Shown here: positions 6,273 to 63,790 of the stretch, piece by piece
Layout: each line of letters begins with the position of its first letter
How positions within the stretch are numbered: position 1 is the stretch's first letter
From: Glaucostegus cemiculus
Lineage: Eukaryota
Reading direction: 5' to 3'
Length of the DNA: 64,000 nucleotides
NCBI GenBank assembly: GCA_976551045.1
Contig: CDPCPM010000281.1
Coordinates: forward strand, 2,852,001-2,916,000
Program-made: the position numbers and the translations under genes
The notes under the pieces: generated by a model
Seen by the model: only the letters and a program-made list of their open reading frames with translations
The model's database searches: none
Told to the model about the DNA's origin: nothing

Positions 6273-7005
6273 AGTCACAAAGTCAAAGTTGAGTTTATTG
6301 TCATATTCACTACACGTATGCACAGGTGCAGCGGGCAACACGGTAGTGTAGCGGTTAGCGCAACGCTATTACAGTGCTAACGATCGGGGTTCGATTCCCG
6401 TCGCTGTCTGTAAAAAAAAAAAAAAAAAAAATTTGTACGTTCTCCCGTGTCTGTGTGGGTTTCTTCTGGGTGCTCTGGTTTCCTCCCACATTTCAAAGAC
6501 GTACAGGTAGGTTAATTTGGGTTTAAAATGGGCAGCGCGGACTCATTGGGCCAGAAGGGCCTGTTACCACGCTGTAAGTAAATTTTTTTTTTAATTAAAA
6601 AAAATTACTTGCAACAATATCCCAAGCACATAGCATCAGATCAGCAGCATTCACAAGAAAAACATAAATTAAACATAAGTTGTACACAAATTTTACAAGA
6701 AAACACAATTAGAACAAAGGAAAAGTCCATTGTAGGGCAAAGTGGTCATAGTGTTGCTATACTGAGGTAGTGATTAGGGTTGTGCAGGTTGCTTCAAGAA
6801 TGGTTGAAGGGAAGCAGCTGTTCTTGAACCTGGTGGTGTGGGACTTCAGGCTTCTGCCCAATGGGAGAAGATGGCATGGCCCAGATGGTGGTGATCTTTG
6901 AGAGGCAACGTCTATCAAAGATCTCCACATTGGGTTGTGTCCACTGCTCTCTGCATTTTCTTGTTCCTGTGCATTTGAATTGCTGTAACAGGCCATAATG
7001 CAACT
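6273..7005 (-). mobile_element. Rex1/Babar-type LINE 3' fragment, interrupted by a V-SINE
   Basis: Colinear with copies at 50678 and 61078; decayed ORF end (RSLKSHTTRFKNS); (GACTTT)-like tail. Confidence 0.8.
6331..6600 (+). mobile_element. tRNA-derived V-SINE (HE1-like)
   Basis: A box tagtgtagcgg, B box ggttcgattcc, V-core ttctcccgtgtctgtgtgggtttc...ggtttcctcccacat, CR1/HER1-like tail tgggccagaagggcctgtt. Confidence 0.85.
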
Positions 7006-7729: not shown

Positions 7730-10546
7730 TGGAATAACTATTGTGGTAGAATAGAATGTTACATTATTCTACATAAACTAAATAAGCTCGTGTTTTAAAT
7801 CCACGGTAAGTTGTACTGTTTACACACATTCCACCACCCTTCTGTGTATGGTACCTTTTGCCTAGTTTGAAGAATTATTCCTTGGCTGTGAAACCAAAAC
7901 CCTTCTGCCAGAACAACTTGGCATACAGGGGAATTGGGGAGGAGGTTGAGGGGGGGTGGTGTCAAAAAATATTTAATACCTTCCAGATGATTTGCAATCT
8001 GTTTTATCTCCGAATCACACTGCAACAAAGTTAAAATTAAACTGGTAGCAAATGCTTGTTGCTTTCTAAACACCTTTAGTAATGAAAAAGTATTGAGGCC
8101 CAATATTCTCTCTCTACAGGTTTACTGCTTGCATATATAGCAAGAAATGATCATCTGGTGGTATTGTTCAATAACATGGAATTTTCAGGTGGTTAAAAAT
8201 TGTTCTATGGAGGGCGCTAATATCTATAAAGGAACTGCATTCGTTTGATTAATATATTTGGTTGCACCTCACTAAGTGTATGTCAACTGAAAGCAGATGT
8301 TTTTCTTAAATGGGATAATAGCTGGGATTCTGCTGGTTGGCTTTTCCTTTTCTCCTGGTCTTGTACGATGAAGGAGAAATTTCAACACCTGGAGTAAATG
8401 GGGACTCCTTTTTGACTGGTGTAGTGATGTTATTGTTGGCAAAACTGCTTATGAATTAGTTTCAAAATGTCCATTTCTACCATTATACAAGGAATTGCGT
8501 AAAAGCAGTACAGATCACTCTGCCAGGGCATTTTTATTTTACTTTCAAAACAAAGGGCACACTTTTGGGTGGTTTTCCTGGGTTACTTCTTTGATGAAGG
8601 TTGGTGATGACCTTGTGACATCTCTGAGTTGGATGATAGATTAATGCATGAATCTTGAGGTATTTCTTTAACAACCCTTACTTGTAATTAAATCTTTAAT
8701 CACATAGCCACTCATTTGATTGTAACCGATTTTGGAACATGTACTTTGGAAGGTGTCTAAGTAATTGACAAACATTCATAATTTCTTGGTTACTTCTGGT
8801 ATTTAAATGGGTTAGCCGTAGCTGTCTGCTTGACTTTCTATCCAAGGTTTGGCACTTCTGACCATTTTGCATTCCCTAACCACAGCCAGAGTTAAAATTA
8901 GGCTGATAGCAAATGCTTCTCTACACTTTAGTAAAGATATTCAATATTTTGTCATGTGTGGATAAAAGTTCATTTTCTCCACCCATTGAAGTGTTTATGT
9001 AAAATAAAATCTTTTCACTTGCTGTTGGTGGCCACAAAAGAATCCTGACTGGGGCAGACCTGACATCTGTACTGATGACCACTGACAAATTTCTAAGGAG
9101 GCATGATTTAGCAAACCTTCAATATGTAAATTAAACTTGTCATGGCATTTGACTTGAACACAAAAAAAGCTCTTAAAATTAATAATAGGGCTGAAGCATC
9201 CAAATCTCCAGAGTTTCAACCTTCTCTCCACAACCCAATTTTATGGGTCCCTCGTTCGTAAGACACTGTTCTGAGTCTGGTCCTAACTTAATTTTATTAC
9301 TATGCTCAGGAAGATATCTGCTCTCTGCCAGACTTCTGTTGTTCTGCTCTGGGAGAGAAATGTTTATGCTCATTCAGGGCTGTCAGAAAAGTTTGATTAT
9401 CCCACGATTTGTTCACCACTCACCATCTCACCTGTACTATCTTTAGGAGTACCGAGTGAAATCAAAATGCTTTCACCACAATGAAGGTGAATACTTTGCA
9501 CATTTGCCTTCACCTATTCTTGTTTACCTCTTGATATTTAGTTAAATGCTGGAATCTGGGGATCAGAAATCAGCAGCCATCCTGACGGTGCTGATGGAGC
9601 AGTGATCTGGGGAGATCACTAAATTACAAAATCACAATCCTAAATTTACTGAAGAACATCCAATTAGGTTCACAGTTGATAAAGAGGTTAGTGGAACAGG
9701 GAATTTGCAGAAATAACCCTTGAAATAGTTGGTAAAAATTTGGAGGAGGATGTGGTTCAACATTGTGAAGATGCAATTTTTTCTAGCAGTCTCCCTGTCT
9801 ATATGTTTATTACTTCCTGGCATAAATGGGGAAGAAATTATGTGGGGTAATACTGTCCAGAAAATACAAAATTCAAATCAAATCACAGAAGCTCCTTGAT
9901 GAAGGTACACCAAAGTTGAAATTATCCCAGTAAGTACGCTATAACTGATGATAACCCTAATTTCTTACACAATAGAATGGATGAACTGTTCATTGTGACT
10001 CTTTACTGGGGCTGCGTTGGAAAAACTCAAAATAATTAGCACGGCTTGAGCACTAATATTGCTCATACCCTTAAATTGTATGGGTTATCACTTGCAGAAT
10101 AAAAAAATTAGAAAGTATATCTGCTTGAGTATAATTAGGAAGGTTTTTGATTGCCAGGTAATCATCCTTAGGTTGTAACAGTATGATTGAAAAAGGGTAG
10201 CTTTTAATTGTTGACATCAATGGTGACAGCAAAACTCACTGCATCAGCCTGTATGGTTGCCCTCTCAGTATGGTACCAGGAAGGTAGACTAAATGAGTTT
10301 CTGGATTGCGTATTCAAGCCTTTTGGCACTTATTTATAACTTCATTGAAATTTCCATCCCAATTTTTATTGCCTTTTGTAGTTTTATTGCAAATTATTGG
10401 ACTAGAGCAAGAAGCACAGATGTTTGTAGGGATGACAGTTGAGGTCGGTGCCACGCCAAATCACTTCTTCATTCATAGGTGCCAACATTAAAGCAAGAGT
10501 TGGTGGTGAAAATAAAAAAAATTATTACATAATTTGCTTATGGAGG

Positions 10547-10743
10547 TAAAAACCAAACTGCTAGAGGAACTTAGTGGACCAGGCAGCATCTGTGGAGGCA
10601 GAAGGATGGTCAGCCTGATACGGGGTCTTGACCCGAAATGTCAACCATCCCTCAGCCTCCACAGATGCTGTCTGACCCATTGTGTTCCACCAGTAGTTTG
10701 GATTTTGCTTCAGATTCCAGCATCTGCAGTCTCTTGTATCTCC
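10547..10743 (+). mobile_element. Penelope-derived hairpin element with decayed hammerhead core
   Basis: Inverted arms; central ctgatac-ggggtcttgaccc-gaaatgtc; degenerate 15-bp TSD (10532-10546 vs 10744-10758, 12/15 match). Confidence 0.75.
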
Positions 10744-20939: not shown

Positions 20940-21170
20940 ATCGTTACCATAATATCGCAATACTTTGACCATCTTACACTACAATGGACATTTTTGTTCT
21001 AATTGTGTTCTTTAACGTATAATTTATTCTTAATTTATGTTTTTCTTCTGAATGTTGTGTATCTGATGCTATGTGCCTATGATGCTGCTGCAAGTAATTT
21101 TCTCATGTACGTGTGCATATGACAATAAATCCGACTGACTTTGAAACTCAACTTTGAATTTTGACTTTGA
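20940..21170 (+). mobile_element. Rex1/Babar-type LINE 3' UTR
   Basis: Reverse complement of 6273-6760 and 50678-50880; ends gacaataaa...(actttg)n. Confidence 0.75.
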
Positions 21171-21509
21171 CCACCCTCTGTACCTTCACCTATCTACATT
21201 TTCAAGACTTGCCTTAGGGTTACCTCTTACCAGAGGTAATCCACCATTACCTCTTCTCTCCTATCCAAGATGATAAAATACCAGTTGGTTAAAGAGAGAT
21301 ATCTTAAAGTATAGCAAATCTGTCATGGATTTTAATTTGAAGTCCAAGAATAAAGGTTAACTATTTTATTTAGTAATTAGACAAATTTTTATGTTTGGTA
21401 CAGAATCCATGGCTATTTTAATCCTCAGCTGGGCAAGTTCTCTGTGATTTGTGTCCAGGTTATGCCAGCCAAAGTAAGCCCATTCTCTCCTTGATATGAA
21501 ACCTTGTGC

Positions 21510-21665
21510 TAGAAATCTGAAAAACAGAAAATGCTGCAAATACTCAGCAGGTCGGACAATATCCATGGAGACGGAAAGGATCAACATTTCCAGTCTATGG
21601 CCTCTCAAAGATCATCAATCTGAAACATTAACTCTGTTTCTTTCCGTGGTTTCTGCTGGGTTTGC
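21510..21665. mobile_element. Penelope-derived hairpin element (older subfamily)
   Basis: gaaatctgaaaaacagaaaatgctgcaaatactcagcaggtc...atcatcaatctgaaacattaactctgtttc. Confidence 0.65.
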
Positions 21666-22250: not shown

Positions 22251-24504
22251 CTGTAGGAATGCTGAGATGTATGCAATAACCTTCAGGCAGCATAATTTCT
22301 ATTAATCAGCTCTGGGGTCATTGGCAGAACACACAGAAATCTGTAGTGGGGGATGGGGGAGAAATAAGGAAAGGCAACCACTGAAACCACATTCTTTCTC
22401 AATTCTTTCAAATCCACTGGGCTCGTAGCAGTTTGTAGCCTCATAACAGGTTCAGAATGACTGCCTTAAATAGTATGAAATGGAAAGAACTGAACAACTG
22501 TGGTACCACACACAAAAAAAAGCCCAGGGCTACAAAAACACTGGCATTTTGGGAGTGAAATTGCTTCTGTTAATTTAAGAGGGAAAAAAGAGGCATGAAT
22601 ACAAAACAGGATTCGGTCTTTGCACCAACTTTATCATTTCCTTTGTATTTACTTTGAGATTCTAAGACTCCGTAAAGGGTCAGTTTATGGCATGGCCCTC
22701 CTGGTTTCAAAAAATGTATTGTCAGTAGTAACAAGATAGGCATCTGATTCTTCAGTTACCTGTTATTACTAACAAAAGAAAACCCTTAGAATGAAATAAA
22801 TTAGTCTTAGGAGTTATTTTGCTTAGGGGTTTAGAGTGTGTGTGTGTGTAGACTATGCTGGTCACTTACACAACATTGAGAACAGCATTAGCTGTTCTCA
22901 CTTGTGACAGACACATCTATGTAATTTTACTTATACTAAGTATTTTGTTTATAGTCTGGACCAAAAGACTTAGAGTTTTGTTCCATTTTATACAATTTGA
23001 ATTTTTGTAAAATTGGGATCATGTGCTACCAAGGATCGAGAACCTTGCAGTTAATTGAGGAGCGAAAGGATAAGAAACACATGAGGATTTTACAGAGCTA
23101 GATGGGACAACTGTCACCCCTAATTGTACCTTTTGAAGTGATTCAGTATAGATTATTTTGATAATAAGTCGATGAATAAGTATCCAGCTCCAGGAGAGAA
23201 ATCCAGCTGCTGTTGAGTTGAATCATACTGACATTTCAGAACTGGAGATCAGATTTCATACATCCATCATCCACTCTGCTGCTGGATTTGTCACTTTTAA
23301 AACAAAAAAGGTGGAACAGTGTCATGCTGAAGAGAGGAACTGGTGGACTTCACATCTGATCCCTCAGTTTTATGCCAGGAAACTTTAATAAGAGTTGATA
23401 CCCGAATGCTGGACTGAGAAATGTTTGTCCTTTTGGATTAAAGTGTGAACAGCTAACTTTTTTTGGTTTAAAAAAAATCACAAAGCTTTTGCACATTTCT
23501 TACTGAATGATCTGGAGCTTGCCTGGAGTTCAGTGGTTGGATTTAAGGAATGGTGAATTGCAGACTATACATTCTATTTTCATTATCTTCTTTCACTTAA
23601 TATCATTTCACACAATGTCTGTGATTACAGGAGACAGTTTGGCACTTTGGGCTTGTTCGTGAAATCTATTTCACACGGGCCTGTGGTTGTGCTGCCCACA
23701 ACATGCCCCTTGTTGGAGTACAACAATAGTAAACTAACAGTGATCTCATTCATTATGTAGAAACTTGAGTGTTTGCCAGTACATGAGCTGTCAGGGCATT
23801 CTGTCGGTGGAGCTTCTGGATGCCAGGATGGTGTTCAGAGCCCCACAAAATGCTTCAGGTGTGGTGGTTCTGTTTACCTGTTGCTAAACATCTGGAAAAA
23901 GTGTGGGCAGGCAGTGCAGATGGCAAATCTAGATAGTAGGTTGTGTTGAGGATGGTCCAATCCATTGTTTACAGTGATTTTGTTTTTATAACCTGCATCA
24001 GAACTCTCAAAAACCAACAGCAACCACTTAATTGGAGTTATACACCAAAAACTGGGCTCTGACATTCCACAATAAGATGCTTTCAGATAGCATTGCTTCA
24101 GAGTAATTTTTGTAGGTGCTTTTTAATAGTCCCTCTTAGTGCACCAACTAGTATATCATTTTCTGGCCCTGGTTCCTTGGAATTGACAACATTTTTCCTG
24201 CCTTGAATTAACTGGCCATGTTGTTTGCTGAGACTTTGCTTTTTTTTTGCCTTGCCTTGGACTCTCTCTGATTATTCTGGTGGAACATCGTGTTATTAGT
24301 CCTGCAGGAAATGGCCTAAGGTTGTGCCTGAGCCTTCTCCCAGTTTGAAGAGTTCACTGTTTATCAAAGTAAACAGTATTTTTGAATTTGTTTTTCTCTC
24401 TTATGGGAAATTTAATCTACACACAGATTGTTCTCCAAGTTCCCTGACAGATTTTTGGGCAAATGTGGATGTACATCTCGGTGATTGAGAGCTCAAAACA
24501 TGGT

Positions 24505-24600
24505 CACAGTTGCAGAAACTAGAGCCGGAGAATGATACAGCATGGAACAGGCCCTTTGGCACATTGAGCATGCTGATCATTAAGCACCCATTTTGCATTA
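24505..24600 (-). mobile_element. CR1/HER1 3' tail fragment
   Basis: atacagcatggaacaggccctttggc is the reverse complement of the HER1-type tail. Confidence 0.6.
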
Positions 24601-27487
24601 ATTTTATTCTAGCTATTTTATTTTCTCCAAGTTCCTATCAATTCTCCACCACCCCCAATTCTATCACTCACCTACACAATAGAAGCAATTTACAGATGCT
24701 AATCAATCAAATAATATTACTTCCACCAAAGTATCTGTTTGACATGTCTGTCTGATTTAAGTGATGAGCCAACTGTCTCTGTCATCCAATTAAAAGACGA
24801 CATGCTCCACTTCAACATCATCGAGACAAAATTATCGTTGGGCCTTGGGACAAGTTTTATAGAAGTGACATATGTACCCTACTTTGGAAACGCAGAGAAA
24901 GAAGGAGCGGGGTGTGGTGTTTGAGAAATGTATATACTCCATAGATGGATTTATACTAGAGGTGGATATTCCAGCTGGTGTTTCAGATGTAGGGGTAAAC
25001 AGGAATGGGAATTAAAGCATTATGGCTGTGTTTCTTTCTCAACCATGGTTGATATTGCACTGTGGGGTATAGGAACTTTGTTACTGATTCGCTATCGGGT
25101 TTTAAAGTATGATTCCAGCGGAGGGTGACTAAAATTGTAACACAAGTGAAAGTTCAGAATGAATCTCTTCATAATAAACGGATTGAAGCTTATTTTGCAG
25201 AATGAACAAAAGAAATATACGTGTGATTGCAATCCTCATCTTGTGGATGGTGTTTGCTGTGTCTTGGTACTGTACAGCTAAAGTATTCACTAACTTAGAA
25301 ACTGCACTTAAAATGAGTCTATGTTCTTCTTTTCTGCTTCCTCTTTAATATCACCAGCATAATGATATTACCTTGCAACTCCCTTGCGTAGCCTGGCTGA
25401 GTGCTTTCCAGCTTGTGATCTGTGACCTCCCCCAGCCCTTGGGGGATTGCTGGGGAATGGGGTTTTGAGTAAGGGAAGGAGGACAATGATTACAGAAGGT
25501 CCAAGAGGTTTCAATAATATTGAAATAATTTAGTTGGAAAGTTCACAAAGAAAGTAAAGATAATAAATATTTGCTTGGCACACTGGAAGCTCTGGGTGTA
25601 GGGCTGCCAGCACTCCTGAGGAACCCAGGAAAAGCCACAACTCCTTAAGGAGGTCCACAATGTCATAGGGTGTTTATTTGGGAGTGGGAAAGACTGGGGC
25701 ACATTTTACAAAGTGTGAACAAGTCAAGGTATCATGCAAAATGAAACAAGGTTGGGAACAACTGATTTGCAAAACTCCAGTTGTGGCCTAACCAGGGTTT
25801 TATATAGGTAGCTTCAACACCATTTTTTGTGTGTGCTGCTCTTTATGAAATCTCACTACTCCATATGCTTTACCAACTATTTATTCTGCCACTGAATGCT
25901 GAAGTCCTCCTGGCTCAGGAAGTTGAGGCCTGTGAGATGATAAACATGTTCATTTCAAACTGATGGGGAAATGCACCACCAAGCAAAATGGATCTTCAGA
26001 TGTGTTTTGCTCCACGTGGAAATTACATTGGTAGAAAACTCCTATTTTAGTGAATACTACAATCATTTTCAACTTTTAAATGCAGCAACAGATTTGTTTC
26101 TGGCAGTAGCATCAGAATAAATGAATAGGAGGAAAAAATGCTCCTTGTATTCTTTTTTAAAAAAAAATGTCATTAGTTGTGTAGAGAGTCACTATAAAAT
26201 CTAACAGGATATCTCAGACCTAGATTGGTGTCTGTTGTATATTTAATATTAGCAGTGTTAATCCAGCAAGTGTCAGCTTTTCTATTCAGTGAACCTATTT
26301 TATTAATCTGTTGAGTTTAATCTTCCTGTAGTGATTCTACAAAGCCATTAAAATAGTAAATACTCTCGCTGTGTATTCAAAAGGAAAAGCTGATAAAAGG
26401 GACACCACTAAATATCAAAGAAATTGCATCCCTGACAGTCCTGAGCATCCGTCTGTGTCACTGCAGAGTCCCCTCAAGGTTAGCCTGTACTTGGTTCATG
26501 GTTCCTCTGCTCTGACTTGTCATTTACATTAATAGGTTGCACCCTGTGCTTGGTGTCTAGCTGAAACAGAGGGGACCAGACGGGTTCCATGTGTGCGATC
26601 ATATTTTCACAACTGCTGACCCTGACCGCTTAACGCATGAGCGATGAAAATCTGCTTATACCATGAAAGTGCTGACAAGTGCAAGCACTTCAGTGACATT
26701 AATAGATATTTTCTTTGAAAAATAAACAATTTCTCCACAGAAGCACCGTGGTCCTAGGTGGTCTGTGGATTGTGGCATCTGTGGACGTGATGTCATGTTG
26801 GTGTATGAAATTAGATGCACGCAAATGAAGGTGGGCTCATAACCGATGCAATTTCTTGCTTTCACGATTAAATTCCTAACATAGAAGAGGAAAAACACTA
26901 ATCTTCCTGCGGGCACTGATGCAAATGGAGGCCCACAGTGACTCTTTGGAGATTGGAAAAATATGAAATCTGTTGGGTTTGTTCAAATAGTTGGGTTCCC
27001 TTTAGGCTTATTCATGTCTGTGTTATATTCATTGCTTCTTTCACAATATCTTAACAACTCCTGAACTTGCCCTTTGACATGCCAAAATATACATGAAGCT
27101 GCAAAATTTATCTGCTCCTCGGGAACAAAGCTAGACTCCAGTGTAAGGTTATTGTGTAAGTGTAAAATGAATGAGACGAGAATTTGATACCAATTTGTTA
27201 AGGTTTTGTACAGTGGTGATTTAAGCCCTGCGCTTTGGAGCCTTGGTCTGTCTCGTAGTTTTGCTTCCCATGAGTATCACTTTCTGCTGTGTTGAGAATC
27301 CACAGCTCAAGAGAAGGAGATGTAAAAGATGTTTAAAAATAACCAGAGGGACCATGACATTTTCTAACTATTTCCTGCCAAAGTGGGCCTAAACTTGCTG
27401 CAAGGCAAGTTGCCCCCTTTCAACACTAACCTGTGAAGTAAGTAGTAACTTGCCTGTTCCATATTTGCCAATGTCATCTTGGTAGCA

Positions 27488-34139: not shown

Positions 34140-34310
34140 AGCTAAAAGCTGCAGATGCTGGAAATCTGAAATAGAAATAGATAATGCCTGAAATAGTCAG
34201 CAGGTCAGTTCTGATAAAGAGTAATGAACCGGAGACACTAACTTAGTTTTTCTCTCCACAGGTGCTGCATGGCATGATAAGTGTTTCAGCCATTTTCTGT
34301 TTTTTGTTTC
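34140..34310. mobile_element. Penelope-derived hairpin element (older subfamily)
   Basis: ctgcagatgctggaaatctgaaata...gttctgataaag...tctctccacaggtgctgc...cattttctgttttt. Confidence 0.65.
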
Positions 34311-34544
34311 AATTTCTTGACCTAATTTAATTGATCAAAAGCTGTGCAATCTGAGCTACCACACGCTTTCCATTTTTCTCTTCTCTCTCCTGCTGAAGTT
34401 GGATCGATCTTCTATATTTATTGCTTGAAGTTCAGGCCATTATAAGGACTGTCTACTTCTGTGTCTGCAACATATAAAGTGAGGGGTGGGGATTGCACAA
34501 TTTTGAACCAACTCAAAACCTCCCACCAAATCTAATTGACTAAA

Positions 34545-35324: not shown

Positions 35325-36175
35325 ACAGAGTGACCTTGGGGTTTAAGTCCATAATTTCTTGAAAGTGGTAACATATGTAGATAAAGCAGTGAAGAAGGTA
35401 CTTGGCTTAACAAGCGATCTGCTAGAGGAACTCAGCGGGTCAAGCAGCATCTGTGGGAGGAAAGGAATTGTCAATGTTTTGGGTCAAAACCCTGATCCGT
35501 TCAGCAGATTGTTTGTTGCTCCAGATTCCAGCATCTGCAGTCTCCTGTGTCTCCGAGGTATATGGCTTGCTTGCCTTCATAGGTCTGGATAGAGAATATA
35601 AAAGTTGGGATATTATGTTACAACTTTACAAAACACTGGTTAGACCACATATGAAGTATTGTGTGCAGTTCTGTTTGCCACACCACAGGAATGATGTTAA
35701 TGCACTGGAGAGGGTGCAGAGGAGATTCACCAGGGTGTTACCTGGATTGAAGGACTAGTTATGGGGAGAGATTGGCTAGGCTGGGCTTCCTGTTCCCTGG
35801 AGAAAAGGAAGCTTAGGGGTGACATGATAGTGATATGTAAAATTATAAAAGGCATAGATAGTCAGAATCATTTTCCCGTTGTAGGGGTTTCAAAAACAAG
35901 AGGGCATGGGTTTAAGGTGAGAGGAAGGAGTTTTAAAGGGAATCTGAGAGAAAAGATTTTTATACAGTAAGTGGTTGATATCTGGAATTTGCTGCCAGGG
36001 GAGGTGGTGGAATCAGATACGATTGCTACATACAAGTGGTATTCAGATGGGCATTTGAATAGGCAAGATACTGAAGGATACTGACCTAATGTGGGCAAAT
36101 ATGATTTGGAAAAAGATCGGTATGAATATGGTTGGGTGAAGGGACCATTTCTATGCTGCATGACTCTGACTGTCA
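35325..36175 (+). mobile_element. CR1 (HER1-like) LINE 3' fragment
   Basis: LYKTLVRPHMKYCVQF..LERVQRRFTRVLPGL..SLEKRKLRGDMI..KTRGH motifs; tail gggtgaagggaccatttctatgctgcatgactctga. Confidence 0.9.
35401..35555. mobile_element. Penelope-derived hairpin-family element inserted into CR1
   Basis: ctgctagaggaactcagcgggtcaagcagcatctgtgg...ccagattccagcatctgcagtctc, flanked by AGGTA direct repeats. Confidence 0.8.
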
Positions 36176-39960: not shown

Positions 39961-41404
39961 TTGAACAAAAGAGCAGGCACTTTCCCTCTCTCTGGAACAC
40001 TTTCATTAGATGGCACAGGCTGACTCAAACCACTTGGTTATGTGGACCTCATACTTACGAAGGAAATTCACTACTATGTTCTAAAACAGGGCTGTTGTCC
40101 AAGAATACGTTGTACAATAAATGGATGTTGACACAGGGAGCTTTTTTTATTCCACTTCTTTCCCTCCTCCCCCCACCTTCTCTTACTAAGTGGACTACTT
40201 CCTTTGCAACCCCACCAATTTCCACCTCCCTCTTACCCCCTCACCCCCCCCCCCCCCCAACTCGTACAGCCAACCACCAGCCATCATAATTTTATCCGAT
40301 TCATTTCTTGCCGCTCTTGGCTGACACTCTTCAAGGGACAGTTAAATGGATGTCCTTTTGTTTGTCATGATGAAATGATGGCAATTACCCAGATGTTTTC
40401 AATGACACGCCACTCTAAAATGCTTGAGTGGTTTTGTGTATAAATGAGGCACCAGCAAACGTGCAGAAATAGGATGAGAAACAAAAGAGATTAGAGCACT
40501 TAAATGTTGCTGTCTTTCTTAGAAGAGAAGTGTGTTTTCGTTTTGGCAGGAGTTTAGGGGAGCAAAGCTAATCGTAAATGCATTGTAAAATTTAGATAGT
40601 GCCCAAAGCACCTATTTGCCTCTGTGGGACTCAGTAGTAACAAGCCAAATGTTGTGTGAAAAGATTAACAAGCAAAGAGGTGGCCACATTAGTGAGCTCA
40701 TTGGAGCTGCAAGATTACAGTGCTTTTATTCTGTTTTGTACAATGATAGTTTACTCACTGGTGAGCACAGACCTGATCCTGACCTGTTTTGCCAACACTT
40801 CAAATAATTTGAATAAATAGTTATTCCTGCTATTTCCATATATATTTTTAACATACTGTTCTCCAAGTCTGTCAGGTTGAAATATTGAAGATTAAAAATG
40901 CAGATGTAAATTTTGCAAATGCCCAGTTGATGAATATTTCCATAAACCAGGAGACTCAGACTTTAAAGATTGAGTTGCTGATTTAAAGTGGGATTATAGC
41001 AGGTTTTTATCTCAAGGGATAATAATGAGTGGTGCATCCTGTAAACTTGAATTAATATTTGTACTGTGAATGGATCGAATTTATTTATTTTAAAAACGCA
41101 GTAGAATATGTGGGGTGCTTAGGGCAGAAACTTCGGGGAATACAGACTGCAAATCACCATTGTACAGTATTTTGTGGTATATCAAAGCACTTCCACTGAT
41201 ATCTAAATTCCTGAAAAGCTTCCTTTAAATTTCTTTTGGTCAATTCCAGGTTTAGGTTATGATCATGAAGTTAGTGAGAATGTAAAGTCAGTATAAGCAG
41301 TGGGCAATGTTGGATGCTGAATGGCAAGATCAAGCAAGCAAGGAAAGAGCTTCAATTCTTCTTCCTTTTTCCTGTGTCCTGACAAAAGACAGTACAACTG
41401 CTTC

Positions 41405-41631
41405 GGTAGGAACAAAGGACTGTAGATGCTGGAATCTGGAGGAAAGTCACAATGATGCTGGAGGAACTCAGCAGGCCAGGCAGCATCCGTGGAGGAAAGC
41501 AGGCGATCAACGTTTCAGGTCAGAACCCTGACCCAGATCCCGAAGAAGGATCCTGACCCCAGAAGTTGACTGCCTGCTTTTCTCCACGGATGCTGCCTGA
41601 CCTGCTGAGTTCCTCCAGCATCATGGTGTCT
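41405..41631. mobile_element. Young Penelope-derived hairpin element with perfect 12-bp TSD
   Basis: TACAACTGCTTC at 41393-41404 and 41632-41643; inverted arms of about 80 bp. Confidence 0.9.
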
Positions 41632-41944
41632 TACAACTGCTTCTGGTTTTTTTTCCTCTACAAAACATTTGCCTTAAGTATGGCCACCACACTCTGAATT
41701 GCCTTCCATAAATGTGCGGGTCAACGGAATCTATTCAAACATTTCACTCATTACTGTCCTCTAAAGAAGTGCCATGTGCACGTCTCATTTTCTCATTGGC
41801 AGCATAGATTTAGAGGAACCTAATGCCAGATCAGAAAAAAATATTATGAAACTCTTTGAAGCATTAAGCCAACCAAACATAGCTCCAGAAGACTACATTA
41901 GCCTATAAAGTTACACGACATGACAATGTGTGTGTGTTACCCCT

Positions 41945-47253: not shown

Positions 47254-47479
47254 GTAGGTCTTGCTGACCTCTGATGTTCTCGGAGGTCAACTGGTTTAAA
47301 TGCCATTTTCTCACAATTTGGCTTATTACAGTTTTTACATTAATGAGATGATGAAAAAGTGGAAGAGAAAGTCAGAAACGCCAAGGCATCTCATTTTAAC
47401 AAATTAGGCAGAGCCTCTTTGGAAAAGTTGTGCTTTGCAGATTATTGCCAAGTTTGATCTGAAACTTAAGCAGTGAAAA

Positions 47480-47605
47480 AAAAACTGCAGATGCTGGAAA
47501 TCTGAAATAAAACTGGAAACTACTGGAAAAGCTCATCCGGTCAGGCACCTATGGAGAGAGAATCAGAGCTAATGTTTCAGATTGATGACCCTTCATCACA
47601 ACTTG
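47480..47605 (-). mobile_element. Penelope-derived element with decayed hammerhead core
   Basis: Reverse complement reads agtt-gtgatga-agggtcatcaatct-gaaac-att-agct. Confidence 0.7.
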
Positions 47606-47734
47606 AAAGTGTTAGGATTTGGAATGAGGTATTTCAGAAGCATAAGCAGAAAGGAAAAAGAACTGGGTAGCTTGCGTTAATAAAAGGATGAGTTCACTGC
47701 AGCAATGAGGAATGGCTTTAGCTCCGTTGAATCA

Positions 47735-49680: not shown

Positions 49681-50079
49681 ACAAGCTGGAGAAAAAAATG
49701 AATGTCTGATATAGGGCGGAGACCAAAAAGAAATGGATGATGCAGGTTGGTTACCAACAGCTAATCTCTCTGGAGTAGGTGTAAATGGAGGGAGATGACA
49801 AGGACAGAGGAAAGAAAAAGGGAATAAGTGCTGGAACTGCGAGATAGAGAACGCAATGCAGTAAAACTCTGATAACCTGGCACACTCGAGACTTCATTGG
49901 CACCAGACGGGCAGATTTAATAGATTTTCCCGTGAAGCCAGTGAGCTGAAAGGGAATGCTGGAACTGGGGCCATGGTGAGTTGAAAGGAAGTATGGCAAA
50001 CATCTCCTGGTGAGCGAGATACTGAACCATCAGGATTTCTAAATAGTCAGATGGCAGATTGTAGGAGTTTTACTGTAAT

Positions 50080-50672
50080 TGCTGGAAATTTGAAATAAAG
50101 AGAAAGCTGGACAAGCCCTGTGTAGAGAGAAGGAACATTCTAAGTTGATGACCTTGCATCAGAACTGGGCAGTCTCTCACAAATTAGAAAGATTGGTTAT
50201 CTGAAATTATTGAATGCTGAAGACTTGAGGATTGTAGCTTGCTGGATGGAGAATGAAGTGCTTTTCCTCAGACGCCCTTTGGGTTAAAGTGACAGGTAAC
50301 TGGAAGCTTAGAGTCACCCTTACAGACTGAACAGAGGGACTTTGCAAAGGTGTGACCAAATTAGCATTTGTTTTTTTTCCCCAATATAAAGAAGACAATG
50401 TTGTGCATACTGAATTCACTACACTAAAGTGGGGAAAGTGCATGTGACTTGATGCATCATCAGGAAGGAATGCTTGAGCCCTTGGCTGGTAGGAAAGAAA
50501 GAGGTAAAAGGGCAGATGTTGCACTTGTTGCTGCAAGGGAAGTGGTGTGAGAAGGGGTGTGGTTGATAGATGGAAAACTCAACCAGGGAGTCATGCAGGA
50601 AAGGATCCATCCAAAGGCCGAATAGGGAACTTACTGACTTCTTGAGCATTTCCAGCACTTTGTTTATTCCAG
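50080..50672 (-). mobile_element. Penelope-like element remnant: GIY-YIG endonuclease region flanked by inverted pLTR fragments
   Basis: Minus-strand frameshifted translation FPCSNKCNICPFTS..QGLKHSF..VTCT..LV / CTTLSSLYWGK..QSV resembles the Penelope linker plus GIY-YIG. A hammerhead-like ctgatgc-aaggtcatcaactt-agaat lies at 50135-50163. Confidence 0.75.
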
Positions 50673-50677
50673 AGCAC

Positions 50678-51335
50678 AAGTCAAAGTCGAGTTTATTGTC
50701 ATATGTGCAAGTACATGCATGGACAGGTGCAATGAAAAACTTACTTGCAGCAGCATCACAGGCACATAGCATCAGCGACACAACACTCACAAGATAAACA
50801 AAACATAAATTATACAAGAAATAACACAGAATAAAATAAGTGAAGTCCATTGGACTGCGAAATGATCATAGTGTTGCTATACTGTAGCAATTAGGGTTGT
50901 GCCAGTTGGTTCAAGAACCGAATGGTTGAAGGGAAGCAGCTGTTCTTGAGCCTGGTGGTGTGGAACTTCAGGCTTCTCTACCTTCTGCCTGATGGTCGAG
51001 AAGTTGGCATGGCCTGGATCCTTTCCTCCTTGAGGCAGCACCTCATGTAGATCCTCCCAATGGTGGGGACGGATGTGCCAGTGATTCATTGCGCTGAGTC
51101 CACTACTTTCTATAGCTTCCTGCGATCTTGTGCATTCAAATTGCAGTACCAGACCACGATGCAGTCGGTCAGGATACTTTCAACAGTATATCTGCAAAAG
51201 TTTGGTAGAGTGTTTGGTGATAATCTGAACCTCCTTAACCTTCTAAGAAAGTAAAGGCACTGGCATGCCTTCCTTGTGATTGCATCCAATATGTTAACGC
51301 ATAAGGAATTTAAAGCTGCTGACCCTCTCCGCCAC
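50678..51335 (-). mobile_element. Rex1/Babar-type LINE 3' fragment
   Basis: KACQCLYFLRRLRRFRLSPNTLPNFCRYTVESILTDCIVVWYCNLNAQDRRKL, typical of the Rex1 RT C-terminus. Confidence 0.9.
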
Positions 51336-51669
51336 ATGAGTACTGGTAGCACAATGACCCTAGTGGCTTCAATTCTCCACGGAAACTCATTGATGGTGTC
51401 ATAGCATAAACTTCCAAGAAAGATTTTGCATTTATATAATTATCTTTCATGGCATCCTGATGCACCAAAACATTTTTGAAGAGTAGTCAGCAATGTGATG
51501 AAAGGAGAGGCAGCAAGTAATTTATAGTTAACTCGGTGACGCAATAACAAATAAGTAATAACCAGATTTGGCCAATTAATTGGCTTACACCGGAACCCAA
51601 AAAGAAATGAAAGCTCCATGCATTAACCTATAAGGACCATTCAACGTTGATGATTGTGCTTTAGGATGC

Positions 51670-52234: not shown

Positions 52235-52840
52235 AACATTTTTGCCTCTGAGTTGGAAAGTTCCAGTCCCACCTCGATGACTTGAGCATAAGATATCTTG
52301 ACTGTCACCCCAGTGTAGTACTGAGGGAATGTGGTGTTGTTGGAGATACCACCTTTCAGATGAACCATTAAGCAGAGGCTCACCTATTCCACCAGGTGAC
52401 ACTATTTGAAGTCAGGAAGTGCACCGAACTCTTTTCATTTGGCCACATTTTGCCTCAGTGGATGTCACTAAGGTTAATGAATTTTTTTAAAAAAACTACA
52501 AATGCTGGAAATCTGAAATAAAATCTGAAAATGCTAGAAACACACAGCAGGTCAGACACCATCTGTAAAAAAAAACTTAATTGGGAAAAAAAGGGCCCTT
52601 GACATTAAACAATAACTCAATTTCTCTTTCCACAGATGCTGCCTGACCTGATTTGTTTAAAGCGCATTGTTTTTGTCAATACAGCTGATGATTAAAACAT
52701 TACCACAGTTTATAGGAGCTTGTTCTGTTCAATTTAATTGTTGTGTTTCCTCCATTAAAATTCTTGTTATACTTCATTGGCTGTAAAATATTTTGGAACA
52801 TGCTGAGGTTATGACAGATACTATAGAAATCAAAGTCTTA
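52235..52840 (+). mobile_element. DeuSINE (SacSINE1-like), interrupted by a Penelope-derived hairpin element at about 52495-52675
   Basis: ttgcctctgag..gttccagtcccac..gacttgagca..ccagtgtagtactgagggaatg..ctttcagatga; tail tacttcattggctgtaaaatattttggaacatgctgaggttatga. Confidence 0.75.
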
Positions 52841-52934: not shown

Positions 52935-53070
52935 ATAATCCAGCAAGCTGGGCAAGTTTGGTTCCCTGACTCTGCCTTCAAAACTGCTCAAGCCATTAAG
53001 GACCTGAATCGAGAAGGGCTTCCACTGATGGTGTTTGCCAATTGGCGAGGTTTCTCTGGTGGAATGAAAG
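52935..53070 (+). CDS. ACACA: ACACA exon ([45 protein letters not shown])
   Basis: aacag|ATA acceptor, G|gtaaag donor, 136 nt, phase 0-1; ANWRGFSGG motif. Confidence 0.97.
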
Positions 53071-53365
53071 GTAAAGAGATTAAAGTGATATGTTTCCAAA
53101 TTTGCTTGCCTCAAAGGGCTATGCCCTCCATATTTTACTGCAGCAGGGAGAGAGGCATTTTCAAGCACAGTGCCTCCTCACCATAGTTCATACAGTTCAG
53201 AGGTTACACAAAGTTGCTGCCATGAAGCACTTGGTCTAGTGGTTGTACAGTAATCAATTTTGACCCACTGGCAGTCATACCTTTTGCATGCTCAGATGTA
53301 TGTGATTTGAACTTGGCGAAGCCAGAGCTGTAACCAGTTCAAGAAGGCAAGCTAATCTCCTGCAA

Positions 53366-53463
53366 TCGAGTCCTGATAAAGGGTCTCGACCTGAAACATC
53401 AACTAACCCTCTGCCTCCACAGATGCTGTCTGACCTGCTGAGGTCCTTCAGTAGTTTCTTTTA
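53366..53463 (+). mobile_element. Short Penelope-derived insertion starting with a near-intact minimal hammerhead core; perfect 12-bp TSD
   Basis: AATCTCCTGCAA at 53354-53365 and 53464-53475; agtc-CTGATAA-a-gggt-ctcg-acct-GAAA-c-atc-aact at 53369-53404. Confidence 0.85.
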
Positions 53464-54719
53464 AATCTCCTGCAAGATCTTTAACTGGCTATTCTGCATT
53501 CTTTGCGGTGAGAGTCCATGCAGTATGATGTGACTAATTTTTAAAATTTTTAGTAATGATGATGCAGTCCTTCTAGAACATGTCCACAGGCTCTTTAAAT
53601 TTGGAATTGCTGTAACTGGCGAGTTCAGTAGGTGCAGTATTTTTGTAGTTTAACTTCAACTGTTAAAGCAGCACACACAGTCTGACGCAAATGTTATCGG
53701 AGCTCCTTGGAATGATCAATCAATCACAGCTTTGACAGACTTTGTATTCTCTTCACTTGCATTAGTTTTCAAAGCTATGAGTCTGGATTATACCAGAGGA
53801 AAGTGTATTTTCAAATTATAAACTAAAAAAACCCATAGTTATAATGTTCATCAATGCCACTGTTTAAATATTTTTATATTAAAAATAATGTTCCCTTGGT
53901 GAGACGACACCTTGATAGGAGGTTCTGAGACAGATACTTCCACTTCAAACGTTTAATAAATCATAGTATTTTTAAATGCTTCAGAAACATTTTTATTGAA
54001 ATCTTATTTTATACTTCAAAATGTGCAGGAGGTTCTTTCAAGGAATCTGATGATAGTGTGCCTTTAAGCCCCCTTATACAGTCTCAGAAAATAAAACATC
54101 AACATTGCAAGGATCCGGTCTGTGAGACTGTTTGGCACAATAACTCCTTGTAAGTGAATGGAGTGATGTGTGCATGCAGTTTCTCCCTTAGCACCACTTT
54201 GATTATTCATGGGGATGGGAGGGGGTGCAGTGCTGTGGAGGGAGGAAGAAAATAAACAATTACACCATTCTTCAGTGAACACACACGGCAAGGAGTCAAT
54301 TGGATGGTGGGTAAAACATCTCAGAAATCGTGTGTAATGAGTAGGAAAAGATTAGACGCAGTTCTTGCTATGCTGAAAATTGACATTAGCAAAAACTCTT
54401 TACTAGACGACCTAGGAGGTCCAATTCAAGTTGGATAAAAAGCACATACAGATACGTTTGGATTGGTCTTCTGCACATTTTTATGTAGCTGGAAAGATTA
54501 TCAAGATAATGCAAAATTAAATTATAAAACTCGCTGAATATTTAGTTGGGGGGTATCCATATGCTAGGGTTTAGTGAGGCAGGCCAGCAGTGACCCACAA
54601 CAGTAAGAAATCAGCCGTGAAATTTACCAGAAATTAACACCAGGGTCGTTGTCTCAGCATGAGTGGTTTGATAGGATGCGAATCTCTGTGAAATTAACCA
54701 CTCTGTTCTTCCCCTCCAG

Positions 54720-57805: not shown

Positions 57806-59179
57806 AACAAGAGGTACATTTTACGCAACATGATAAAAGGAACATTCTGCACAATGCCACGGTGAATTGATGGGTTGTTTTTTTTTGTTGTTTATTTACT
57901 TTGAACACTTAGTGAAAAGAAAATCCTTCAAAAATGATAGCTGTCCTTTCAAACTGCAGTTTGAGCTCTAAGCAAGCAAAAGAGCTTGTCACTTGGAACA
58001 ACTTGTATCTGAAGAGCCATAAAAGCATTAGCTGTTGATAAAGACCTCAGTTGGATGAGTCATAATTGTGCCCAACAAAGAATTTGATTGTTAAAAACGC
58101 AGCCTAATGGAAGGAGAAAAGCTTTTGGAGCTTCGCAGAAACCCTCTCACACAAAGCATTGCATAATTTTACTTTTATGGCTAATTTAAGATTTTTTTCA
58201 AACTCCTGGTTATTATGGATCACTGGTCTTTGATGTTTACTTCACTCCATTTGCCACAAACAAGCAGTTAGGCTGAGGTTCCTGCTGACTCCAGCAGAAG
58301 CTGTGTCGACTCCATTTGTCTCTCACCGCACACTTCAGGCTTGCTGATTATTAAAGAGAATTTCACAGTCATTTAACTCTTGAAAGACTGAGGACAATGG
58401 TATCTGTTACGAATCATCTTGCGAAAATTCTACACAGGTAACTTGTTGTTAAAAGAAAGATGATCAGGAATATGCTACATGGGGAATTGCAACAGTAACT
58501 TTTATTAATTTAGCTTCTTTAACATTGCTGTGAGCAAACAAAAGTTTAATGTTGATGTGCATTAGGTGAGATTAAGGCAGAGAACCAATAGCTTGGTTTT
58601 TGTCTAAAAGGAGAAAAAAGAGAATGCAAGGTTTAGGGAGATAATTTTGCAATAGGAACTCTGGTAACTTAAGAAATGGCCCCAAATGATGAACAACATT
58701 TGGACACAATCAGGTTGACAGATCTGAAGGAGTGTAGAGATCGAGTGTTGTAGCAGCTGAGGAGATGAGATATTTTGTTGTACTTGGACCTGCAGTGAAT
58801 CAGTCAATGACACAGGATTTGGAAGCCTGAACTTGGTTCTCCCACACTTCACTTGAGCATGAACACACTTTCATTGGCCATGCAGTGTAATGCTGGAAAA
58901 TGCTTGGCTCCTGAAAAGCGAGCCACCTGGTTTAGTGCAGATCCCTTTCCTTTGCCCCAGTGGTGAAATTCTAGGACACTCAATGCCCAAGCCTCATACA
59001 TGTTCAAATAGGTTTTACTTGCTTTGTGAACCAGCACCCTTCCATCTCAACAGGAAGAAATCATTTGGGCTGAAGATGGTTGGAAAGTTGATTGAGGGTG
59101 GAGAGTAGGATACAGGCCTGATCTTTGTGTGTCAGGCAGACTCTGAGGATGGGCTGTGGGTGTGGAACCAAACGCTGAG

Positions 59180-59265
59180 AAAACTGGTGCAGGGTCTCTG
59201 TCCAAAACGTCAATTATCCCTTTGCCTCTTGACCTGCCGAGTTCCTTCAGCAGTTGTTTCTTGCA
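59180..59265 (+). mobile_element. Penelope-derived element half with decayed hammerhead core
   Basis: ctggtgc-agggtctctgtcc-aaaacgtc...gacctgccgagttccttcagcag. Confidence 0.55.
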
Positions 59266-60225: not shown

Positions 60226-61077
60226 AAAGGTTGCCTCTGGTAACCTTGCCAACTCTGGCTACTCTGGGGGTCAAGAGCCTGAGATGATTTTGTTTGCTGC
60301 CAATGGGTTCATTTAAGGTAGTTAATTACAATGGAATGTTTCAATTGGCTGGCCAGCGCACGCCAGTTCTCAGGAGTGTCCCATACACTTTGAACACAAT
60401 ATTTAAACTGTTAGTCAGAGACAAACATGCATGACTTCAGTGTGGGAAGGCTTCTCAATAAGATGATGAAAATTCTGAGCTCTTCAGCTTTGTATCCTCC
60501 CTGGTGGAAGTTCAGCAGTTCTTACACCACAGTGGAAAAAACGATTGCTGTTGGAAGGTATGAGTGCAGACGTATTTTGGGTGTCAAGTGAAACCCATAT
60601 TTCATCCCATTTCTCACAGTCTGGCTTATTAGTCTTGGTTTTGAAAGGTAGTTGTCCTATAACCAAGTGGTCATCATGACCAAATTTCTGCCTGTTAAGT
60701 AAGGTTTGTAACTGATCGTGTCGTGCACACTGAACTCGTAGGCCAGTGTTCTGAGGTGAATTAGGTCATGCCAACAGCAGTGATGTTAAGGACCGTATGA
60801 GACCCTACCCTCCCTCAGAAAGAAAGGGGATCAAGCCAACTCTCCCACTTCAGATCGCTGGGTTGTAATTTTCATCATTGCTCCTCGCACATGGAGAATG
60901 GCCATTTGTTCATGAGGTATCAGGAAGTGACTAAAGGCAAGGACAGAAGCTTCCAGAACAATGTAAAAAGAAAAAAAAACTTCAATTTAAAGAGGAAAGA
61001 CTTAAAATTTAAGGCTTCCTCGGTAGACTTGTGAGAAAAGAAACCTCTAAAGGACAGTGTTCAATAAAATAGTGGTT

Positions 61078-61960
61078 ACAGTTGAGTTAGTTGTCATATG
61101 CACAAGGGCATGTATGCACAGGTGCAATGAAAAACCTATTTGTAGCAACATCACAGGCACAAAGCAGCATTCGCAAGAAAAGTATAAATTAATAATGTTC
61201 TCAATTTTTACAAGAAAGCACAATTAAAAAAAGTCCATTTTAGTGTAAAGTGATCAAAGTGGTCATAATGTTGCTATACTGAGGTAGTGATCGGGGTTGT
61301 GCAGGTTGGTTCAGGAATGGAATGGTTGAAGGGAAGTAGCTGTTCTTGAACCTGATGGTGTGGGAAATCCATCTTCTGTATCTCCTGCCCGATAGCATCT
61401 ACAAGAAGATGGCATGACCCAGATCATGGGAGTCTTTGATGATGGATGTTGCCTTCTTGAGGCAGCGCCTCCTCTAGATGCTACCAATGGTGGGGAGGGA
61501 TGTTCCTGTGATGTATTGGGCTGAGTCAACTACTCTCTGCAGCTTCTTGTGTTCCTACGCATTCAAATTGCCATACCAGACCATGATGCAACTGGTAAGG
61601 ATACTTTCAACAGTGCATCTGTGGAATTTTGTGTTTTGTGATGTGCTGAACTTCCCAAGAAAGTAAAGGCACTGGTGTACCTTCCTTGTGATTGCATCTA
61701 TCTGCTGGGCCCAGGACAGGACATCCGATGTGTTAATGCTCAGGAATTTAAAGCTGCTGACTCTCTCCGCTGCCTGTTCCCCCAAGGTACTCTGGTGCAT
61801 GTTCGCCACCCCCCCACCCTTCCCCTTCCTGAAGTCAACAATCAGCTCCTTAGTTCTACTGACATTGGGCGAGAGGTTATTGTGGCACCACTCAACCAGG
61901 TGTCCTATCTACATTGATTTGTCTAACAATAGTGATGTTGTCAGTGAATTTGTATATGCC
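61078..61960 (-). mobile_element. Rex1/Babar-type LINE 3' fragment
   Basis: ERVSSFKFLSINTSDVLSWAQQIDAITRKVHQCLYFL...TVESILTSCIMVWYGN. Confidence 0.9.
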
Positions 61961-63709
61961 AAGAATGTAAGTGTGTGCAAGATAGTGGTGCATTTTAATT
62001 TTTCCATCACAGTGCCAGATTCACAAACAGAAGTTCAAGTAGTTTTACTGCAATGAGACCTATACGCAGAAGTTTTATTTTTACTTTTTGGGGTCTTGGC
62101 AGCACACCTTCCTGCTTCACCCGGCTTCATTTAAATTAGTTGTCAGGTGTCAGCCCACGCGGATCTCCTGAGCTTTGCTATGCAGAACGATGACCAGATA
62201 GCACAGAGTCATGTGGAACCACAAACCAAATCCGACTTACACTACAAGAAGCATTTAATTTGATGAGCAGATTTTTAGGGCCATAATATTACAGGTCTGC
62301 AATGCTGTCAAATGTAGGATTCAGCCAGCAGAGAGTGAGAATGCGAGTGCTGTTTGCAGTCAGCCATCCAATTGTAATATAAAAGTGCATTTCTTCATCA
62401 CTGAAAGTTGCATTTTGACTAGGGGGCAATAGTGTATGAGGGGCATTATTTGATCAGCTGTTTCCTGGCTTTTACTTCCCTTAACTTAGCTTGTCCAAAT
62501 CCTTTATTTGTGTTTTAGAGCAGTTCTGCAGCACAGTCTTCCTTATTTACTGTTGTATTACATCATTTTAGAATATACTTAATTGCTGTTCTATTTTTTC
62601 TATTTGTTTGTCATTAAAAGTGTTATCTGCTAAGAATAAGACAAGTTAATTTTTTTTTAGTCTTCAATTAGCTGGCATATTAGATCGCATGTAGTTCAGA
62701 TATCATTTGTCATTTTGTTACTAGAATTATTTTGATATTTTTAAGAATTTTAGCAAAAACTTGTATATTTTAAGATACATGTACAAACACATATTCGCAG
62801 AAAAATGAAAAATCCTGTCGACTTGACCTTTAACACTTTGAAAAGCATTCACAGGGGAAATTTAGCAGTCTCTGAAGGAGCTAGGATCAATCAATGGCTG
62901 ATTATGTTCTCATTCTGTGCTGGATTGATCTTTTACTGAACTGATGATAACAGGCCTTTGCCTGCTTCAAGAGGCAACCCAAAATGGGCTTTGACACGAT
63001 TGGTTGTGACAGGGATCAATCTGAATCCTGCTGAGTGGTATGAAAGGCAGGCACCCCCAAAGATCTGAGAAAGCTACTCCGATTCATTGTGATGCCCTTG
63101 TGATGGCAAATTTGTTCCTTCCAAAGACTCCTTTATGTTTTTCCTCCAACTGTAACAGAGAACCAATTTCAGAATTCAGCGGGCCAAACCGAGAAATTGG
63201 CAGATGCAGCCCTTGAACGTTTGCCTTCAGTTGGAAAGAAGAGAATGATTTCTTTATGTGGTAATGAGGATGACAAAAAAGAAAGCAGTAGGGCAGATCA
63301 ATACAGGAATGACAGATTAGAAGAGACACTTCATTTAAGACCAAAAAAAATACAGAAAACCTTTCCTCTTTAATATGGTAACTTATCAGAATTTGCATCA
63401 GATTTCCACTGCTTTTTAAAATTGCACTTGTCAAGTATTACATGTGGCATAAAAGAAAAATATTGATTAAAATTACGTGCCTATGACTTGCGAGGCAGCC
63501 ATGCAGCAGACTGTTTCGAAACACTGCCCTTCCAATGGATGTCATGATTACTAGCCAAGTATGCTGCTCTGTTTGACTGGTATGAATGCCACTGTAATAC
63601 ATTGAGGTTTATCTCCATGAAGGTTAGCTCCTTTATTGGAAGCTTCATGTTAGTATGAGATCAATATGGTTTTAAAAAGTATGGCATAGTCAGGCAATGC
63701 AGAATACAT

Positions 63710-63790
63710 GAAAAACACAATGATGCTGGAGGAACTCAGCAGGCCAGGCAGCATCCGTGGAGAAAAGCAGATGATCAGTGTTTTGGGACA
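63710..63790 (-). mobile_element. Penelope-derived hairpin-family half element
   Basis: cacaatgatgctggaggaactcagcaggccaggcagcatccgtggag, nearly identical to the arm at 41448-41495. Confidence 0.8.

Follow-up and report, generated by a model that had tools for sequence, protein, structure and literature searches.

The 98-bp insert in an acetyl-CoA carboxylase (ACC) intron of Glaucostegus cemiculus (here called the focal copy) is best read as an old and fixed copy, bounded by a target-site duplication (TSD), of a repeat with a high copy number and an intact minimal type I hammerhead in its consensus. It is likely a 5'-truncated, tail-less solo pLTR of a cartilaginous-fish Penelope-like retrotransposon (PLE), and it is predicted not to cleave. 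We put the probability of this reading as a whole at about 0.82. The window analysed is the whole stretch of 64,000 nucleotides, and the coordinates of its features are collected in Table 1.

The insert (53366-53463) lies between the two copies of a 12-bp direct repeat, AATCTCCTGCAA, at 53354-53365 and 53464-53475, and the hammerhead-like motif (53369-53404) sits near its start, with exactly the letters first written down. The first-pass annotation had described a 98-bp insert with a perfect TSD and the motif at its start, about 300 nt after an exon on the ACACA sense strand, and both repeats and coordinates were found as claimed. A 12-bp match was scored by 0/1000 random window pairs, so the perfect 12-mer at the focal flanks is beyond chance. 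In the window, only five exact direct repeats of at least 12 nt occur at a spacing of 60 to 400 nt, and two of these bound family copies. We also considered the right repeat as the tail of the element and rejected this, as the left copy is identical (12/12) and the likeness to the tail is only at chance level. The upstream exon (52935-53070) encodes ACC, with ACC1-type proteins as the best match. Eleven ACC exons, from 2740 to 56639, were matched, and all are on the + strand, so the focal insert, which begins 295 nt into the intron, is sense-intronic. The first ACC exon scores 90% against elephant shark ACC versus 84% against killifish ACC. Between 7300 and 32690 there are 25 kb without ACC exon matches, apparently a single long intron. 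The RNA reads of related organisms gave no depth on the focal flanks, which points neither way on expression; the focal copy likely has no role in ACC expression.

Table 1. Features of the focal insertion and of the other family loci in the window
Position	Strand	Feature	Evidence
10545..10743	.	head-to-head arms; hammerhead and tail on + arm; 13-bp TSD (11/13)	nhmmer, arm mapping
21507..21660	.	- arm with weak + arm	repeat search, nhmmer
34140..34316	.	second subfamily; arms head to head, + arm with hammerhead, - arm with tail	nhmmer, arm mapping
35409..35554	.	head-to-head arms, tail on +, 14-bp TSD (11/14), inside LINE-like repeat	arm mapping
41405..41631	.	head-to-head arms, hammerhead on +, tail on -	repeat search, arm mapping
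47474..47606	-	single antisense arm, hammerhead (C3G) and tail	nhmmer
50072..50168	-	old weak antisense arm with hammerhead box	nhmmer
52488..52680	.	head-to-head arms, tail on -	nhmmer, arm mapping
52935..53070	+	ACC (ACACA-type) exon, upstream of insertion, ends phase 1	protein matches
53354..53365	+	left TSD, 12 bp	direct-repeat search, random-pair control
53366..53368	+	3 nt without family match; piled reads stop fitting before 53369	read pile-up
53369..53372	+	hammerhead stem I, 5' strand	read pile-up, pairing analysis
53373..53380	+	core box C3-A9 and extra nucleotide before stem II; 53378 is A at G8	sequence; family G in 86-95% of reads
53381..53392	+	stem II, 4 bp and tetraloop; closing pair G-U in focal copy, G-C in family	read pile-up, pairing analysis, consensus
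53393..53400	+	G12-A15.1; mini stem III, palindromic and disrupted at 53398; cleavage triplet; scissile bond predicted between 53400 and 53401	read pile-up, consensus
53401..53404	+	stem I, 3' strand; mismatch in the first pair, at 53401	pairing analysis, consensus
53405..53463	+	body of the element, with pyrimidine tract, CAG (53420-53422) and a hairpin (53436-53453); 3' end without tail	alignment, pairing analysis
53464..53475	+	right TSD, 12 bp	direct-repeat search, random-pair control
59120..59264	.	+ arm with hammerhead; inverted left part weak	repeat search, nhmmer
63706..63790	-	single tail-less arm without core box	nhmmer

Within the hammerhead, the focal copy differs from the family at four positions: 53378 (G8A), 53392, 53398 and 53401. 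Except for G8A, these are CpG changes that weaken stems I to III, the one at 53392 turning G10.1-C11.1 into G-U, and three CpGs lie inside the ribozyme. G8A is the sole change of the four that hits an invariant core base. It breaks the C3-G8 pair, and as C3 is kept, this is not the natural U3-A8 variant; the invariant core of CUGANGA, GAAA and UH is not found in the focal copy. The general acid of the hammerhead is supplied by G8, according to the part of PMC6155905 that was available. In the Anolis PLE, G8C abolishes cleavage, and G8A is not among the tested variants given in the available text of that study (PMC11167929). From these features we predict that the focal copy is inactive and does not cleave. 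Previously, it had been called near-intact, with three G>A changes, two of them at CpGs. By letter count near-intact is correct, but functionally it is not, as G8A strikes a catalytic position, and the comparison with the family adds a fourth difference, with 53392 as a further CpG change. Folded as a single strand, the 36-nt motif does not give a hammerhead fold (z 0.36). Two checks that the first-pass annotation had named, an Infernal search and an RNA-motif descriptor, gave it no support: the Rfam hammerhead models showed no match even at E 10, either over the whole window or in a local search, and a loose core descriptor gave 8 matches in the window versus 6.6 expected, which is chance level. 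The ribozyme call therefore rests on the family and not on the focal copy.

A minimal type I hammerhead of the dimer type is complete in the family consensus, a result supported by the aligned reads and window copies, with cleavage as a prediction. Reads from three related organisms (A, B, and C, none of them G. cemiculus) were aligned to 53100-53900 at 80% likeness; 44 positions, among them 53392, 53398, and 53401, lie outside the base table that was read out. In organism B the depth over the insert was 800 to 2600 times that of the flank for the ribozyme and 2300 to 7300 times for the body, which sets a minimum for the copy number. At 53378, where the reference has A, G was present in 3194/3700 DNA reads of organism B, in 470/497 RNA reads of organism A and in about 95% of the contig depth in organisms A and C. 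An intact GAAAC-GUC box (second box and triplet) is present in the consensus built from the loose ends of 4291 reads, and a CpG-aware consensus of the window copies showed the same intact core as the relatives' reads. Both the invariant core (CUGANGA, GAAA, and UH) and the full CUGANGA...GAAAC-GUC consensus that had been reconstructed earlier are present, with G8 in 86 to 95% of the relatives' reads. Stem II of the consensus has the G10.1-C11.1 pair and an extra nucleotide after A9, and 84% of its cells are paired. The mini stem III is palindromic and allows a dimer, as had been proposed, and it is broken in the focal copy. Across 12 window arms, positions 53397-53398 read CG in 2, CA in 6, TG in 3 and another dinucleotide in 1, which is a CpG-decay pattern, and the strand-swapped dimer fold reaches -12.9 kcal/mol for the consensus versus +6.8 kcal/mol for the focal copy.

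Over the whole hammerhead, 82% of the cells are paired; only 3/500 shuffles were as high, in a control that related sequences can beat, and slid controls gave 17 to 41%. Five cells are changed on both sides, a number reached by 62/500 shuffles, and stem I is 71% paired, but with just 5 to 6 sequences per pair. Two subfamilies differ in loop II, in the cleavage triplet (GUC or GUU) and in the first stem I pair, which is C-G in one and U-A in the other. In a subfamily, core position 9 is C followed by A; this was seen in 3/7 window arms [10611-10620 (+), 50157-50166 (-), and 59182-59190 (+)] and in 180 and 131 contigs of the relatives. Judging from the sequence, this C9 subfamily may represent a natural variant of the core in which the extra nucleotide sits in a different register. 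There was no pile-up of RNA ends at the cleavage site in one RNA run, and fragmented RNA-seq is unlikely to show such ends.

Iterated nhmmer searches identified 10 family loci at E<1e-3 and one weak locus (50072-50168), which brings the number in the window to 11, or 1 per 5.8 kb, with copies of about 100 to 230 bp. Two head-to-head arms are clear at 5/11 loci and weak at 2 more, the focal copy being single-armed, and such opposite-strand joints also occur in the reads and contigs of the relatives. The 3' ends fall into two classes, at about +63 to +69 and +93 to +101 nt from the predicted cleavage site, and the focal copy ends without a tail 63 nt past this site. Within one insertion, the difference between the 3' ends (the tail) is 34 nt at 10545-10743 and 40 nt at 41405-41631. 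A TSD is kept at 4/11 loci (12/12, 12/12, 11/13, and 11/14), including the perfect 12-bp TSD of the 41405-41631 locus at 41393-41404 and 41632-41643. No paralogous empty site was found for the 35409 copy inside the LINE-like repeat. At the 10611-10613 junction, the inverted arm starts at most 2 nt from the predicted cleavage site and extends stem I into a long helix; the 34207 junction overlaps the beginning of stem I by 2 nt. Base pairing between the tail and the body can close a two-helix structure around the conserved hairpin (10654-10743 and other tailed arms). This structure has 19 pairs, of which only 2 are changed on both sides, and from the modelled pairing it is a candidate binding or priming element. 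The 98-nt focal insert folds better than 200/200 shuffles (z -2.95).

Most family loci are long inverted repeats flanked by TSDs, which would also be seen if the family were a MITE-like DNA transposon whose terminal inverted repeats enclose a hammerhead-like centre by chance. Cut-and-paste elements are expected to have fixed ends and a fixed TSD length. The family has neither fixed terminal inverted repeats nor a fixed TSD length: the two ends of one insertion differ by the 34- to 40-nt tail, the centres differ between copies, single-armed copies such as the focal one have their own TSD, and the TSD length varies from 12 to 14 bp. This makes such an origin highly improbable. The features of EN+ PLEs are present in the family, namely, a hammerhead in the terminal repeat, a 5'-truncated copy in inverted orientation next to the 5' end (which the focal copy lacks), a 30- to 40-bp tail on one end only (the focal copy is tail-less) and a TSD of variable length (12, 12, 13, and 14 bp). 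The earlier link to Penelope pLTRs fits this anatomy of inverted arms, one-end tail, TSDs and 5' truncation. Membership of the family in the PLEs is likely and rests on anatomy, because no reverse transcriptase (RT) or endonuclease open reading frame (ORF) was found linked to it. A Pfam scan of 30/58 long frames in the window gave no RT, GIY-YIG or other PLE domain. Protein searches with two family arms returned a sawfish TEN1 isoform, an unnamed 189-aa product and four unrelated repeat-rich proteins, with no RT among them, and the motif had 0 matches in each of the contig sets scanned (two of metagenomes, one viral and one prokaryote).

Relative to the cleavage site, the starts of all 15 mapped arms lie between -32 and +40, and 13 arms begin within the hammerhead, on a map in which the reference itself begins at -32 (stem I) and longer starts are invisible. 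Such starts could point to a separate short non-autonomous element, either a PLE-derived SINE or a retrozyme monomer, that would have its own transcript and depend on a PLE protein for mobilisation in trans. The density of the family goes in the same direction, as does the lack of any match in the window to the upstream motif of the relatives' copies, and non-autonomous PLE derivatives have been described (bioRxiv 10.64898/2026.07.22.740005). However, in the relatives part of the copies continue upstream of stem I into coherent pyrimidine-rich sequence (loose ends before 53369, agreement 0.42 to 0.50), which speaks more for a longer element with truncated ends than for a short standalone one. 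In addition, the 5' ends differ from copy to copy, no promoter of a short element was identified, and the head-to-tail tandem units that define retrozymes in the available text of PMC7229834 are absent from the 11 tandem-repeat rows of the window. A non-LTR retrozyme as defined was rejected for the family on this last ground, and we consider a separate short element of any kind unlikely. The abundant non-autonomous family suggested by the first-pass annotation is indeed abundant (11 window loci and the depth in the relatives), but it may instead consist of truncated ends of a longer PLE, as many copies in the relatives continue upstream.

If the focal copy is a truncated solo pLTR of a PLE, the analogy with the Anolis element suggests how it may have arisen. 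The PLE endonuclease would have made a staggered cut that gave the 12-bp TSD, and reverse transcription would have begun about 63 nt downstream of the cleavage site, at the inner one of two internal initiation sites. The RT would then have copied through the uncut hammerhead and halted just upstream of stem I. Sister copies would have started at the outer site, with the 34- to 40-nt tail as a result, or would have added an inverted arm. After insertion, the focal copy would have undergone neutral decay, mostly CpG deamination plus G8A. Two internal starts together with an uncut RNA substrate would explain why genomic copies hold the whole ribozyme and end at two places. A bolder proposal, which we offer tentatively and regard as somewhat doubtful, is that the stumps are strong-stop products: the PLE enzyme would start at two fixed sites 63 to 100 nt downstream and be halted or turned back at the ribozyme, so that the hammerhead would serve as a 5' boundary or template-switch point and not as a cutter. 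If this is true, then at a density of one copy per 6 kb Penelope priming and fold-back junctions would be recorded in very large numbers in shark and ray genomes, and the family, through the splice acceptor that it carries, would be a source of new terminal exons, as in the sawfish TEN1 model.

The candidate acceptor lies in the body of the focal copy, where 53403-53422 (+) contains a branch-point-like pentamer, a pyrimidine tract and CAG, possibly a sense-oriented 3' splice acceptor. Splicing from the upstream phase 1 exon into the insert would meet a stop after three codons. The sawfish TEN1 isoform model ends in a family peptide that starts at exactly the acceptor junction, and the Ten1 domain breaks off there, at position 83 of 117; on these sequence grounds, the end of this isoform is likely an exonisation of a family copy. 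For copies in sense orientation, cryptic splicing is perhaps a more plausible burden than cleavage. Other repeats are also present in the window. A different insertion of about 180 bp, outside the hammerhead family, has a perfect 13-bp direct repeat (24431-24635). A second repeat family has four copies (6600-6870, 20940-21140, 50680-51440, and 61075-61700), and a frame in it (51110-51439, -) matches Pfam PF09004, which is typical of LINE remnants. A weak tRNA-like match at 23797-23852 (+), with 25.3 bits for the mascRNA model versus a gathering score of 42.5, is possibly a SINE head.

The focal insertion is old and common to two related organisms. Both junctions are spanned by contigs of organism A, and the right one also by a contig of organism C, and the focal flanks are 4 to 6% diverged in organism A. 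An empty site of the focal copy was not seen, as organisms A and C carry the insert and organism B has no depth over the right junction. A perfect TSD as a sign of youth was considered and rejected: the body is diverged at 5/39 positions, and the right repeat is already altered in organism A.

The first-pass annotation had stated that every copy is core-mutated, which is correct for the 7/7 arms in which the first core box is preserved (5 on the sense and 2 on the antisense strand, with six partial boxless arms left out of the count); each carries 1 to 3 core changes. It had further suggested that core mutations in sense-intronic copies are favoured, as an intact ribozyme would cut the ACC pre-mRNA. 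All five sense arms with a core box are indeed mutated, three of them by G8A, and tandem retrozymes are modestly under-represented in Xenopus introns, according to the part of bioRxiv 10.64898/2026.07.22.740005 that was available. G8A occurs in 3/5 sense versus 0/2 antisense arms, with p=0.02 against the 14% read frequency when the focal copy is included and 0.10 when it is not, a weak hint from a small sample. However, the two antisense arms are mutated too, and sense arms with a hammerhead are not depleted (5 versus 2). The core has 16/77 mismatches versus 62/252 in the non-catalytic body of the same arms (Fisher p=0.54), and neutral decay with each arm's own divergence gives a probability of 0.36 that all 7 arms are mutated and of 0.37 for the 5 sense arms. 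In organism A, G8 is equally frequent in RNA reads and in DNA (95% and 95%), and there was no significant difference by RNA strand (196/212 versus 274/285, p=0.11; library strandedness is not on record). Moreover, single minimal hammerheads showed no cleavage in vitro in the available text of PMC4209133, and the hammerhead of the Anolis PLE needs the element's protein in that of PMC11167929, which leaves little activity to select against. Selection against self-cleavage is thus quite improbable, and the damage of the focal copy is what ordinary ageing would give. The data point to an absence of selection on genomic minimal hammerheads within host transcripts.

[quoted passage not shown] The ray family shares these marks, the type I topology, the short stem I, the dimer-requiring mini stem III and the occurrence mostly as single dispersed motifs from truncated PLEs. 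It differs in a stem II of 4 to 5 bp versus 7 to 8 bp in Schistosoma, in the mutated core of the focal copy and in being tied to the PLEs by anatomy and not by an ORF. The available text of that paper does not mention cartilaginous fish, and two of its supplementary files contain no shark or skate term. EN+ PLE insertions are described with a head-to-head inverted copy, a 30- to 40-bp tail at one end, TSDs and solo pLTRs (Arkhipova 2013, PMC3846280; Craig 2021, PMC8557442), and for the Anolis PLE (Poseidon) reverse transcription from two internal sites that define the tail, with uncut RNA as the insertion substrate, is described (Frangieh 2024, PMC11167929). The ray family resembles these in all of the insertion forms, in heavy 5' truncation and in the uncut genomic hammerhead, whereas its TSDs are 12 to 14 bp versus 8 to 10 bp in rotifer PLEs, its copies are only about 100 to 230 bp long and very dense, and an ORF-bearing copy was not found in the window. 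Animal non-LTR retrozymes (Cervera 2020, PMC7229834; Li 2026, bioRxiv 10.64898/2026.07.22.740005) are likewise non-coding, PLE-derived and dispersed as monomers with a type I hammerhead, but they form head-to-tail tandem units of about 150 to 450 bp that give circular RNA, whereas the arms of the ray family are inverted and free of tandem units. A literature search on shark and elasmobranch Penelope hammerheads, with Repbase and Dfam outside its scope, found no description of this ray family. PLE hammerheads have been published for fish, coelacanth, frog and reptiles (PMC4209133; bioRxiv 10.64898/2026.07.22.740005), and retrozymes for one chondrichthyan (bioRxiv 10.64898/2026.07.22.740005), at least in the parts of these sources that were available. 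With the present family, cartilaginous fish join the vertebrates in which Penelope hammerheads are very numerous, and the density of the family makes it a large sample for the formation of inverted-plus-tail PLE insertions and for selection on genomic minimal hammerheads in host transcripts.
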